A stretch of DNA of 64,000 nucleotides from Promethearchaeota archaeon (GCA_019894975.1 JAGXNO010000001.1:1-64000); one strand, 5' to 3'; shown: positions 32,018 through 35,738, counted from the first letter of the stretch. The notes: generated by a model from the letters alone, not told the origin. Numbers and translations are program-made.

Positions 32018-33052
32018 TTAACCTTTGGGATTCAAAATATCATCAGGATTGATTATTTCTCCATAAACTTCATGAGCTAATTTTTTAAGTCCATTTAAAC
32101 CAAAAGGTTCATTTTCTAGCCTATTTGACTCCCATATCTTTAAATTACTAAATTCGTTTCTTATTTCTTCAATATAATTAAGTTGAATTGATCGAGTATT
32201 AGTACAAAATTGACACTTTTTTGACTGAGGTGTTATCATATTAATATGAACTCCTTCAAGTGTAATGTACTTCTTAGTTAAGTCTCGAGCTCTTTTAATT
32301 TCTTCAAAACTAGGTTTTTCTGCTATAGTAACAAGTCTTAAAGACCCTATTGTGTGAATTAAGTCAGTAATTCTCTCTCCTCTTCTTTCAAGCTCTTCTA
32401 GCATTTGAAAAATCTCCTTTCCTAATTCTTTTCGTTTCTCATAGTCATCAAATGGTCTAATTAATTTCCGAAATAATTTAGAAAATTCTCTTACTGCTTC
32501 TTTAATAGAATTATAAAAATTCAAAGAATATTTCAATATAACTTTAACTTGGTCCTCAGGAATTTCAAATAAAGCAATCATATTCCCAGTTGGAGGAAAA
32601 TCAGCGATAATAATATCAAATTGTATTGATTGTTTATTTTCAGCATCCAAAATTTCTTGAAAAAACATTGCATTCTTAAGAGCAAGAGGGATTGAATCTG
32701 CGGTAAATGTTGTATCCATAAACGTTTCTAATTGTGGGATCAAACCGACAATTGGCATTTCCTTCATTAAGGCTTTCATTTTTGTTATTAGATTATTTGT
32801 ATATTTCTTGGCGTTTATATTTGGATCAGGTTCGATGGCCCAAATGTTTTCTGATAAAAGTGTTATTTTATTTCCAATTTCAGTATTAAATAAATCGGTA
32901 AGGTTATGTGCCATATCAAACGATATTAGTAAAATTTTTTTATCTGGAAGAAGATCTGCTAACTTCACAGCAGTAGCGGCACTAATAGAGCTTTTACCAA
33001 CACCACCCTTTCCACCCAATACGATAATTTTCTCCATTTGGAATTTTCTCAT
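32018..33052 (-). CDS. ArsA/GET3 family ATPase
   Basis: Deviant Walker A GGKGGVGKSS, SFDMAHNL, DFPPTG, C-terminal CQFC. Confidence 0.88.
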   Translation of the reverse strand: MRKFQMEKIIVLGGKGGVGKSSISAATAVKLADLLPDKKILLISFDMAHNLTDLFNTEIGNKITLLSENIWAIEPDPNINAKKYTNNLITKMKALMKEMPIVGLIPQLETFMDTTFTADSIPLALKNAMFFQEILDAENKQSIQFDIIIADFPPTGNMIALFEIPEDQVKVILKYSLNFYNSIKEAVREFSKLFRKLIRPFDDYEKRKELGKEIFQMLEELERRGERITDLIHTIGSLRLVTIAEKPSFEEIKRARDLTKKYITLEGVHINMITPQSKKCQFCTNTRSIQLNYIEEIRNEFSNLKIWESNRLENEPFGLNGLKKLAHEVYGEIINPDDILNPKG

Positions 33053-33299
33053 TCATTTTTCAAATTATATATCAAAAATAAATATGGCATAAAAAACTAA
33101 TCAATATATCTGAAAATTAGCAAAAAAATAAATTCTTTAATTAATTTAATTAATAATAATCATCACAATAAGATGATTTCAAGTTTAAAATCACAAATAA
33201 AATTAAAGCATAAAAATCAAAATTATTCAAGTTCTTATTTAATTCGTATAACAACAAATAAAATTTGAGTATATATTAAAAATTTAGTTTATTTATAGA

Positions 33300-34527
33300 A
33301 TGGATGTGATAAAGATTACAGATCAGAATGAGTTTACTACAAAATATATTATTGAAGTTAAATTTTCAATTAAAGGAGTTGTTGAAAAAAGCGATATAGT
33401 CGGCGCCATTTTCGGTCAAAGATAAAAGTCAATAGCCATATCGGCAAATCGGCTAAACTGAAGGTCTTCTTTTAGATTTAGATTTAAGAGATCTACAAAA
33501 ATCTGGACGAATTGGACGGATAGAAGTAGATAATATTTCTAAAGAGGGTGTCTCAGAAGGAAATATTAAAATTCCATCCTCATTAACTAGAAAGGAGACC
33601 GCACTCTTGGCGGCGACAGTCGAAACAGTCTCTCGCGTTGGCCCGTGCGAGGCTGAAATTACCCTAATTGAAATTAGAGATGTTCGTGAAACCAAACGTA
33701 AGAAAATTATTGAAAGAGCTGCCCAACTTCTAAAGCAATGGGACCAAAAGTCTTTAGAACAAAGTGAAATTGAAGAGAAGATGGATAAAGATATTAAACT
33801 CGGAGAAATAATATCTTGGGGTCCTGATAAACTCCCTGCAGGTCCAGATGTGGAAAAAAATCCAGATCTCATTATCGTAGAAGGAAGAGCCGACGTTTTA
33901 AATTTATTACGAATAGGTATTAAAAATACAATTGCAGTTCAAGGAACTCAAGTACCTAAATCAGTAATAAGTTTAGGAAAAAAGAAGAAGACAGTAACAT
34001 GTTTTCTTGATGGGGATCGAGGAGGTACTATTATTTTAAATGAATTATTGCAATTGTTAAAAATTGACTTTGTTGCTAGAGCTCCTGACGGGCATGAGGT
34101 TGAAGAGCTAACGAGAAAACAAATGATTAAAGCACTGCAAAACAAAAGATCCGCGAAAGATTTAAGAGATATGACGTCTGGATCTACGGAAGGAAAAAAA
34201 TATAATACTAAGGAAGAAACACTTCAAAAGTACCTCAAGAAAGTAAAAATAAAAGATGAAGCAATAATTGTGGAAGCAATTAATACTATTGAAACAGGGC
34301 ACAGTATTGGGTTTAACAAGAGCCTTAATAAGTTATTTGATTTTCCCGTTGGGGGTATTTTTGAAAAAATTAGAGATTTTAAAGATACTCAATATTTAAT
34401 TATCGATGGAGTTTTAACAAAAAGACTTTTATCACTGTCTATAAACATGAAAATCAAGTTTATTGCATGCAAAAATAAGGAAGATGAATTAACAATTCCA
34501 GAGCATTTAGTTGTCTTTTATTTTTAA
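33300..34527 (+). CDS. dnaG: Archaeal DnaG (exosome-associated, TOPRIM); exon 1 33300-33419, exon 2 33457-34527, 396 aa after splicing
   Basis: Exon 1 [26 protein letters not shown] joins exon 2 [24 protein letters not shown]; [25 protein letters not shown]. Confidence 0.9.
33420..33456 (+). other. Putative BHB-type mRNA intron in dnaG (37 nt)
   Basis: Insertion AGATAAAAGTCAATAGCCATATCGGCAAATCGGCTAA; central helix GGTC/GGCT, AA|A at both junctions, inner helix GAT/ATC; removal restores the frame and the conserved GQ-TEG. Confidence 0.78.
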
Positions 34528-34542
34528 TTAAAATATTAAATC

Positions 34543-34782
34543 TTATACAATTGGTAATGCTACAGAGAAGATTAGTTGTATAACAAATGATAAAGCACCT
34601 AAAACTAAGATACCTATTCCACAAATTTTAAAAACCAAAAAGTAATCTTTTCTATTAGGTTTATTCGCAATTTTTAGAATCCGTTTTGAATTTTGAAAGA
34701 AAAGCGACAGTCTTTCAAACAAACCAGGTTTCTTTTTCTTATCTAGTTTTGAATACTTATCATACTTTGGGTAATTTGACAC
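34543..34782 (-). CDS. secE: Protein translocase SecE/Sec61 gamma
   Basis: RILKIANKP.RKDY...KICGIGILVLGALSFVI. Confidence 0.92.
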   Translation of the reverse strand: MSNYPKYDKYSKLDKKKKPGLFERLSLFFQNSKRILKIANKPNRKDYFLVFKICGIGILVLGALSFVIQLIFSVALPIV

Positions 34783-34838: not shown

Positions 34839-35738
34839 TTAATCGAGGTCAAGAATACTTGAAATAAAAAGGTCTTTATTAAAAGGTTTTAAATCGTTAT
34901 AACCTTGACCTGTTCCTACAAACAGGATTGGTTTTTTAGTTTCGAATGAAATTGATAAAGCCGCACCACCTTTCGAGTCCGCGTCAAATTTTGTTAAGAT
35001 ATTTGCATCAATTCCTACATGACGATCGAATTCTCTAGCTTGATACAAAATATCGTTACCCGCAAGACTATCCCCTATAAAAACAACCAGATCTGGTTGT
35101 ACCACACGAACCATTTTCTGCATTTCCATCATTAAGTTTCGGTTTGTGGTTTGTCTTCCAGAGGTGTCTATTAAAACTACCTCGATTTTTTTTGCTTTAG
35201 CATGCTCAATTGCATCATAAGCAACTGAAGAAGGATCAGATTTGTACCCATGTTTTATAACAGTGATACCTACATTGTCCATATGTTTAGATAGTTGTTC
35301 AATAGCTCCAGCTCGGAATGTATCTGAAGCAGCTGCAACACAATTTATATTATTTTTTTTTAAGAGATGAGCTACCTTAGCAATTGTAGTAGTTTTTCCC
35401 GTTCCGTTAATTCCAAGAAAAACAAGTATGTAAGGTTGTCCTGAGGAGATTTTTATTTTTATTTCATTCATTAAGTCAATTTCCTTTTCAGGGGTTAAAA
35501 TACTTATAATAATATCTTTTAATGTATCAAATAAGATTTTTTTAGTTGATTTTAAACGAGTAATTTGTTGCCCCTCAAACGACTCAATAAGGTTTTTACA
35601 GATTTCATCTGCAGTGTCTATAGCAACGTCATTACTAATAAGGAGTATTCTTAAATCATTAATAGCATCCTCTATCTTATTTTCTGTTAATGTTTTTTTA
35701 ACAAAAGTAGAAAACACATTTTTTAGTTTCTTCGCCAT
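34839..35738 (-). CDS. ftsY: SRP receptor FtsY
   Basis: GINGTGKTTT, DTFRAGAIEQL, DTSGR, TKFDADSKGG, GTGQGYNDL. Confidence 0.96.
   Translation of the reverse strand: MAKKLKNVFSTFVKKTLTENKIEDAINDLRILLISNDVAIDTADEICKNLIESFEGQQITRLKSTKKILFDTLKDIIISILTPEKEIDLMNEIKIKISSGQPYILVFLGINGTGKTTTIAKVAHLLKKNNINCVAAASDTFRAGAIEQLSKHMDNVGITVIKHGYKSDPSSVAYDAIEHAKAKKIEVVLIDTSGRQTTNRNLMMEMQKMVRVVQPDLVVFIGDSLAGNDILYQAREFDRHVGIDANILTKFDADSKGGAALSISFETKKPILFVGTGQGYNDLKPFNKDLFISSILDLD

Follow-up and report, generated by a model that had tools for sequence, protein, structure and literature searches.

How can an archaeal cell obtain a complete DnaG protein from a dnaG gene whose reading frame closes after 41 codons? 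This question is raised by a 64,000-nucleotide (nt) stretch of DNA from a Promethearchaeota archaeon (GCA_019894975.1; JAGXNO010000001.1:1-64000), hereafter the window, in which dnaG (33300-34527) is split by 37 nt inserted between the codons for Gln40 and Thr41. DnaG is a subunit of the exosome in Archaea. A preliminary description of the window, made from its sequence alone, had read the 37 nt as a tRNA-type, or bulge-helix-bulge (BHB), intron in the pre-mRNA, cut at CAA|ACU. Here, that reading is retained at a probability of roughly 0.9: positions 33420-33456 would be a BHB intron in the pre-mRNA of a single-copy archaeal dnaG that is removed by EndA and RtcB. In other words, the dnaG message is very probably cut and rejoined by the enzymes of tRNA splicing. 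The core of the preliminary description is now supported by inserts at the same site in relatives that covary with the flanking exons, by selection on both exons, by contigs from RNA-labelled libraries in which the 37 nt are missing, and by the presence of genes for EndA and RtcB in the same genome.

The interrupted dnaG gene

Translation of the locus reproduced the exon and insert coordinates, the insert length, and the Gln/Thr split given in the preliminary description, and deletion of the 37 nt yielded the intact DnaG of 396 amino acids (aa) that it had anticipated (Table 1). The three stop codons that it had named are likewise in the sequence and block both frames. Past 33419, the frame of exon 1 continues through a single AGA codon to TAA at 33423-33425, while the frame of exon 2 is closed inside the insert by TAG at 33433-33435 and TAA at 33454-33456. 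The earliest ATG, GTG, or TTG in the frame of exon 2 is at 33607, 50 codons downstream. Exon 2 alone scored 362 bits against the NCBIfam family NF003108 (DNA primase DnaG, archaeal; cut-off of 300 bits), and this match begins at profile position 27, indicating that exon 1 provides the lacking N-terminus. Pfam families Toprim_4, Toprim, and Toprim_2 were matched by exon 2, and a Pfam search with exon 1 alone, which at 40 aa is too short, matched no family. No second dnaG was found in the organism's own genome assembly (95% complete, rated 8.6% contaminated) and dnaG is therefore treated as single-copy.

When the window was compared with nine intron-bearing relatives, the ratio of nonsynonymous to synonymous substitution rates (dN/dS) was 0.03-0.08 in exon 1 and 0.04-0.08 in exon 2, with dS values of 0.4-2.0. 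Both exons therefore still code for one selected protein, and the ratios point to strong purifying selection on each of them. Gene callers fail to recognize this organization: on L104, a 9.6-kb metagenome DNA contig from the European Nucleotide Archive that carries a closely related dnaG, a 41-aa open reading frame (ORF) and a 306-aa ORF are called in place of the 396-aa DnaG.

Table 1. Features of the dnaG locus and of its predicted splice-site motif, in window coordinates.
Feature	Coordinates	Strand	Basis and remarks
dnaG exon 1	33300-33419	+	40 codons, MDVIK...GAIFGQ; translation, tblastn conservation, dN/dS
dnaG exon 2	33457-34527	+	356 codons and stop, Toprim domain; translation, Pfam, NCBIfam
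Candidate intron, BHB-type, 37 nt	33420-33456	+	Same-site inserts in relatives; skipped in X19 and X14 contigs; kept in L104
Outer helix h, 5′ strand, AUUUUC	33408-33413	+	Exon 1; pairs with 33460-33465; 93% of cells paired (19 sequences)
Central 4-bp helix H, 5′ strand, GGUC	33414-33417	+	Gly39 codon and first base of Gln40; pairs with 33451-33454
5′ bulge AA|A	33418-33420	+	Predicted cut after 33419; 3 nt between H and h′ in 19/19
Inner helix h′, 5′ strand, GAU	33421-33423	+	Pairs with 33448-33450; 93% of cells paired
Intron hairpin GCC, 5-nt loop, GGC	33435-33445	+	98% of cells paired; two-sided changes at all three pairs
Inner helix h′, 3′ strand, AUC	33448-33450	+	Alignment pairing
Central helix H, 3′ strand, GGCU	33451-33454	+	Intron; alignment pairing
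Enlarged 3′ bulge AA|ACU	33455-33459	+	5 nt rather than 3; predicted cut after 33456, 2 nt 3′ of H
Outer helix h, 3′ strand, GAAGGU	33460-33465	+	Exon 2; alignment pairing

Same-site inserts in related genomes

Exon 2 was searched against 40 related genomes and the GTDB species collection, and both exons were placed by tblastn. A total of 94 Asgard dnaG loci with both exons were recovered, 73 of them uninterrupted and 21 carrying an insert exactly between Gln40 and Thr41. These 21 inserts comprise 18 distinct sequences with lengths of 29, 30, 32, 37, 39, or 40 nt, and one of the loci (L029) belongs to a second family of the order. Six more intron-bearing dnaG contigs, including one with a 38-nt form, were identified among the metagenomes of the Joint Genome Institute (JGI).

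Mapping of the intron on a quick dnaG gene tree, with support from the Shimodaira-Hasegawa-like approximate likelihood ratio test (SH-aLRT), revealed a scattered distribution that requires nine changes under parsimony, at least four of which are forced by well-supported branches. The intron is present on the deepest branches (L093/L094; L085/L087/L091; L090) and further in L022, L057, the clade of the window, and the clade comprising L009, L012, and L015. The intron-less loci L002 and L033 are nested (SH-aLRT 94) among a clade whose other six members bear the 37-nt intron, an apparent instance of precise intron loss. The simplest reading that fits this distribution is that the intron is old at the site and has been lost precisely and repeatedly. 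An alternative history, repeated gain at a predisposed site (Phe-Gly-Gln|Thr-Glu-Gly), is conceivable given that the Phe UUC and Glu GAA codons are complementary. A covariance model built from 19 intron sequences matched only the dnaG site in the organism's own genome (E 3e-21; next matches at E >5), indicating that the intron is neither a repeated element nor one that is recently mobile or spreading. One entry in the tree, L075 (DATKTW010000002.1), is titled 'Candidatus Nanopelagicaceae bacterium' (Actinomycetota) and encodes an Asgard-type DnaG that groups inside the Promethearchaeota; this contig is probably mis-binned.

Covariation between exons and intron

The exons have no indels, and positions relative to the junction are therefore comparable without alignment. 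The structure was tabulated directly by these positions and tested on an alignment of 19 sequences. The bases GGNC, consisting of the Gly39 codon and the first base of the Gln40 codon, pair with intron bases -6 to -3 (GNCU) in 19/19 sequences; all four pairs of a canonical 4-bp central helix thus form in every sequence (100% of cells paired). In the third of these pairs, the Gly39 wobble base has a base of the intron as its partner; this pair is C-G in 12 sequences, A-U in 3, G-C in 2, and U-G in 2, the latter being the state of the window, while in intron-less alleles the same wobble base is A, G, U, or C. The 5′ bulge reads AA|N or AG|N throughout, a compensatory form of the inner helix (GAC/GUC) occurs in L029, and the central helix is followed on its 3′ side by NA|A, two further unpaired bases, and the exon-exon helix UUUUC/GAAGG. 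For the structure as a whole, 95.7% of cells are standard pairs versus 27-54% after displacement of the partners by 1-3 columns. Not one of 500 shuffles reached the observed pairing or covariation, a result that, like the Fisher figures, overstates significance since related sequences are non-independent. The pairings proposed in the preliminary description (GGUC/GGCU, GAU/AUC, and AUUUUC/GAAGGU) are all present, the enlarged 3′ bulge that it noted is 5 nt in all 19 sequences, and the same-site inserts that it proposed to seek among related Asgard genomes were found at 21 of the 94 loci.

The mature sequence permits four cut registers. Of these, only the one with both cuts 2 nt 3′ of a central-helix strand restores Gln40-Thr41 in all 19 sequences; with any of the remaining three, at least one sequence is not restored. 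The cut made by EndA falls after the second nucleotide of the bulge, and because the only register valid in all sequences has this same geometry, the cuts are assigned after 33419 and 33456, giving the spliced junction GGUCAA|ACUGAAGG.

Synonymous codon use near the junction also differs between the two kinds of allele. Phe38 is encoded by UUC in 13/18 intron-bearing versus 5/55 intron-less alleles, Gly43 by GGY in 18/18 versus 26/55, and Thr41 by ACA in 0/18 versus 20/55. Such differences, here among relatives that are non-independent, would follow from selection on the exon halves of the helices.

Evidence from RNA-labelled libraries

A total of 22 public runs were listed for a 2-kb stretch at this locus, and four RNA-labelled runs were compared over positions 33150-34650. 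A 151-nt contig from run X19 (RNA-Seq) and a 351-nt contig from run X14 (library source 'metatranscriptomic', strategy WGS) both join 33417 directly to 33455 without the 37 nt. The skipped stretch, 33418-33454, matches the intron once a 3-nt ambiguity, which covers the predicted cuts, is allowed for, and the spliced junction that the preliminary description had predicted is thereby seen in assembled contigs of a sister strain. Runs X18 and X20 cover 33512-33818 only, placing the junction outside their coverage, and are uninformative with respect to splicing.

The X14 and X19 contigs share a set of letters unlike those of the window, which assigns them to a sister strain that is ~97% identical. 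The DNA contig L104 shares at least 10 of these variant letters, and it keeps the 37-nt insert with one change in the loop. The variants common to the RNA-library contigs and L104 are 33311C, 33522T, 33531A, 33535-33537 GCA, 33723-33724 TG, 34053G, 34056A, 33255T, 33271-33272 GG, and a 6-nt deletion at 33283. Further, among 5.8 billion proteins, every one with 88% or greater identity to exon 2 is a truncated call with a length of 305-351 aa, and full-length forms of DnaG (393-394 aa) occur only at 86% identity or below. The protein cluster at 98% identity has 8 members, all of 306 aa, and its representative is encoded on L104. No exact match to the spliced junction was found in the JGI metagenome contigs, while the unspliced junction, searched as a control, returned 10 matches, of which 6 were true dnaG and 4 were due to chance. 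Neither the protein collection, the JGI contigs, nor L104 provided intron-less DNA of the X14/X19 lineage. The DNA of this lineage therefore has the intron wherever it has been seen and only RNA-labelled libraries are without it, the pattern of a sequence that is present in DNA and absent from mature RNA.

The X14 contig starts at window position 33178, just downstream of an AT-rich, TATA-like stretch at ~33136-33160, and would correspond to a long leader if it derives from RNA. Transcription from a second TATA-like box, at ~33271-33282, would by contrast produce a leaderless dnaG mRNA.

Splicing enzymes and a proposed route to mature mRNA

The genome encodes two EndA paralogues of ~200 aa each (contig C22, 27.1-27.7 kb, and contig C55, 16.6-17.2 kb), both above the cut-off of TIGR00324. 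The two align to different halves of fused EndAs, one to the catalytic and the other to the structural half. A full-length RtcB is encoded on contig C90. Asgard EndA is reportedly an (alpha-beta)2 enzyme, with an L1 loop that permits relaxed motifs, and such motifs are cut solely by the (alpha-beta)2 and epsilon2 types of the enzyme (PMC5829648). The genome thus contains genes for a putative broad-specificity EndA and for an RtcB ligase. In addition, a second, partial match to RtcB (profile positions 150-426) lies at the end of contig C48 (320-1171) and may represent a paralogue or contamination.

In the mechanism proposed here, the dnaG transcript would fold into the outer, central, and intron helices of Table 1, with the 3-nt bulge on the 5′ side and the widened 5-nt bulge on the 3′ side. 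A two-subunit EndA would make its two cuts, after 33419 and 33456, at a distance of two nucleotides on the 3′ side of either central-helix strand, and RtcB would ligate the exons to ...GGU CAA|ACU GAA..., coding for the full 396-aa DnaG. The excised intron would probably end as a 37-nt circle, and an unspliced dnaG mRNA would give a 41-aa peptide only. The identity of the acting enzymes, EndA and RtcB, and the exact cut register are deduced from the gene content and the alignment, respectively. Full-length DnaG requires splicing, and the intron needs no regulatory role; the gating of an RNA-decay factor that the preliminary description suggested is hypothetical.

The dnaG insert may have company in the same genome. 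The purA gene on contig C86 (~62.90 kb; L105:1466-1498) is split inside the motif WG|DEGKGK by an insert of ~32 nt, laid out like that of dnaG (GGGG...hairpin...CCCU AA|A), and looks like a second BHB-type mRNA intron. As a separate observation, ARAGORN identified only 16 tRNA genes in this genome (3.9 Mb, 95% complete), and introns occur in 6 of these. Many others probably escaped detection because they carry multiple or non-canonical introns, a situation published for other Asgard lineages.

Weighing the evidence and alternative explanations

In addition to the non-independence of the related sequences mentioned above, several observations weigh against a BHB intron at this site, and these concern the motif and the RNA evidence. 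With respect to the motif, the 3′ bulge (33455-33459) is 5 nt in all 19 sequences, in departure from the canonical hBHBh′ structure with its two 3-nt bulges, one per strand. The motif is therefore a relaxed one, between hBHBh′ and HBh′: as in HBh′-like forms, a central helix, one well-formed 3-nt bulge, and an inner helix are present and the other bulge is enlarged. Additionally, minimum-energy folds calculated with ViennaRNA for positions 33395-33480 and for 18 homologues never return the BHB; the constrained BHB fold lies 2.5-12 kcal/mol above the minimum, with exon-exon or exon-intron pairings competing. Thermodynamics thus neither finds nor supports the motif, for which the support is covariation. 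With respect to the RNA evidence, it consists of assembled contigs rather than raw reads, and from a sister strain rather than the strain of the window. Run X14 is flagged 'probably DNA' and its contig extends 122 nt upstream of the ATG, which implies either a long leader or DNA. In the X19 contig, the joint is preceded by just 19 nt on its 5′ side. Finally, precise loss among close relatives (L002/L033) makes an intron-less DNA allele in the sister strain conceivable.

The competing pairings deserve separate mention. An alternative fold (UUCGGU/ACUGAA with UAGCC/GGCUA), which the preliminary description considered incompatible with the BHB and a possible means of making splicing conditional, is present in the sequence. 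Covariation specific to this fold was not found among the homologues, and U16 is C in most relatives, which breaks its sixth pair. The sequence UCGGY occurs three times in direct order within 33411-33456: one copy (UUCGGU) belongs to the end of exon 1, another (AUCGGC) to the 3′ strand of the hairpin, and the last (AUCGGCU) to the 3′ end of the intron. Several competing pairings are thereby permitted, and the three copies may stem from duplication as the intron evolved or represent a switch in folding.

Only one rival remains live, and it bears on how strong the RNA evidence is, not on the nature of the insert. It holds that the contigs without the 37 nt are DNA, or transcripts, of a sister strain that has undergone precise intron loss, in which case the insert is still an intron by the comparative evidence and the RNA support vanishes. 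The flag on X14, the 122 nt of upstream intergenic sequence spanned by its contig, and the nested, intron-less L002 and L033 all speak for such a polymorphism. However, the intron is retained on L104, a DNA contig that shares the variant letters, truncated calls make up 8/8 members of the 98%-identity cluster and all clusters at or above 88%, and the JGI contigs hold 6 true intron-bearing dnaG contigs versus no spliced junction. Moreover, stray DNA in an RNA-Seq run as small as X19 (160 Mb) would be unlikely to give a depth of ~3. On balance, an intron-less sister allele is considered unlikely, if still worth keeping in mind, as the source of these contigs.

Far less probable is translational bypassing, in which the ribosome would leave the unspliced mRNA at the CAA codon of Gln40, skip the 37 nt, and land before ACU. 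Ribosome hopping of this kind is known from gene 60 of phage T4 and from the byp elements of yeast mitochondria. A stop codon lies within two codons of the putative take-off site in all homologues, and in the window's own clade exon 1 and the intron have similar ends (UUCGGYCAA-A and AUCGGCUAA-A, respectively), both of which observations would suit bypassing. Yet the take-off codon (CAA/CAG) is not matched by the triplet preceding ACN (UAA, UAU, UAG, or UUA), and in divergent homologues the resemblance becomes complementarity (GGGC/GCCU, GGAC/GUCU), which indicates base pairing and not a repeat. Nor would bypassing predict RNA-library contigs from which the 37 nt are missing.

A decaying or split gene, with dnaG inactivated or its halves made as separate polypeptides, is scarcely credible. 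The annotation of 41-aa and 306-aa ORFs by gene callers would be compatible with it, but the low dN/dS on both parts (0.03-0.08, with dS up to 2), the 50 conserved codons that open exon 2 without a start codon, the retention of the insert across species and families, at a single site and with covariation in its structure, and the want of a second dnaG all contradict it; an intact second copy alongside decay of this one, which the preliminary description had considered as a counter-argument, is thus not what the genome holds. An assembly or sequencing artefact, the other objection that it had considered, can be dismissed, since the insert is carried by independent assemblies from many studies, including at least 6 JGI contigs and three runs that contain 97-100% of the sampled words of the stretch.

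Comparison with known systems and implications

The BHB intron in dnaG most closely resembles that of cbf5, which encodes a pseudouridine synthase and whose intron was reportedly studied by Watanabe in 2002 and Yoshinari in 2006. In Crenarchaeota, the cbf5 pre-mRNA intron has been gained and lost over time, its motifs are relaxed, and the EndA linked to it is hetero-oligomeric (Yokobori, 2009; PMC2738675). Both are short introns inside an archaeal coding sequence that share a mechanism and a hetero-oligomeric EndA, both are patchy among relatives with gain and loss, and in both cases callers mis-annotate the gene as broken or frameshifted. The dnaG intron differs in its gene and phylum (Asgard/Promethearchaeota), in the use, for its central helix, of a Gly codon with a wobble base that covaries with the intron, and in a 3′ bulge widened to 5 nt. 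Further, its support is comparative and from metatranscriptome contigs, in contrast to RT-PCR or in vitro assays.

A BHB intron has also been described in the 5′ untranslated region (UTR) of Haloferax volcanii HVO_1309, where the circular intron and in vitro cleavage were shown (Schwarz, 2020; PMC7714728). According to that work, cbf5 is the only other mRNA example (PMC7714728). The HVO_1309 intron is, like that predicted for dnaG, an EndA substrate in an mRNA; unlike it, the HVO_1309 intron interrupts no reading frame, and the alpha′2-type EndA of its host takes strict motifs only. In Asgard archaea, non-canonical introns have been described in tRNA genes by three papers that contain no case in an mRNA (PMC11291895; bioRxiv 10.64898/2026.10.13.758758; PMC5829648). 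These introns share with the dnaG intron the same predicted (alpha-beta)2 EndA and RtcB, similar sizes, relaxed motifs, and repeated gain and loss, but the exon half of their motif is tRNA structure whereas in dnaG it is coding sequence. A BHB intron in an Asgard mRNA was not found in the literature, where a search that left most subscription journals outside its reach returned work on tRNA and rRNA only.

The preliminary description had suggested a bearing on the unconventional mRNA splicing of eukaryotes. The splicing of HAC1 and XBP1 is regulated by stress and initiated by IRE1, a kinase-RNase, with RtcB acting as the ligase in metazoans. The system proposed for dnaG and that of IRE1 are alike in that mRNA is cut at stem-loop sites by protein only, then ligated, with a change in reading frame; the endonuclease and the substrate motif are different. 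The link between the two is best regarded as an analogy confined to the ligation step.

What is new here is the gene (dnaG) and the phylum for a known kind of coding-sequence BHB intron, and this is well supported. In the literature searched, crenarchaeal cbf5 is the only archaeal coding sequence for which an internal BHB intron is on record. In the present case an essential, single-copy information-processing gene of an Asgard archaeon is untranslatable without splicing. The comparative proof is unusually clean, in that covariation links a synonymous codon position to a base of the intron, and it is joined by the first support at the RNA level. Protein-enzyme splicing of mRNA may be commoner in the closest archaeal relatives of eukaryotes than the printed record indicates. 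In practical terms, such genes are mis-annotated as truncated or as pseudogenes, and the dnaG intron provides a defined substrate for probing the specificity of Asgard EndA.

A broader proposal can be advanced tentatively, and is considered somewhat doubtful. The dnaG intron, found in at least two families of the order, might be an old member of a genome-wide set of mRNA introns spliced by EndA and RtcB in Asgard archaea. Under this proposal, splicing of messages would be routine, exon codon choice would be shaped by splice-site structure, and both would predate eukaryotes in their closest archaeal lineage, while the competing folds might tie DnaG supply to splicing efficiency.

Neighbouring genes

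Three genes on the minus strand surround dnaG in the window. They encode an ArsA/Get3-like ATPase at 32018-33052, a small SecE-like protein at 34543-34782, and, at 34839-35738, a GTPase resembling FtsY, the receptor of the signal recognition particle. This neighbourhood is conserved in L104, where a prefoldin gene comes next.

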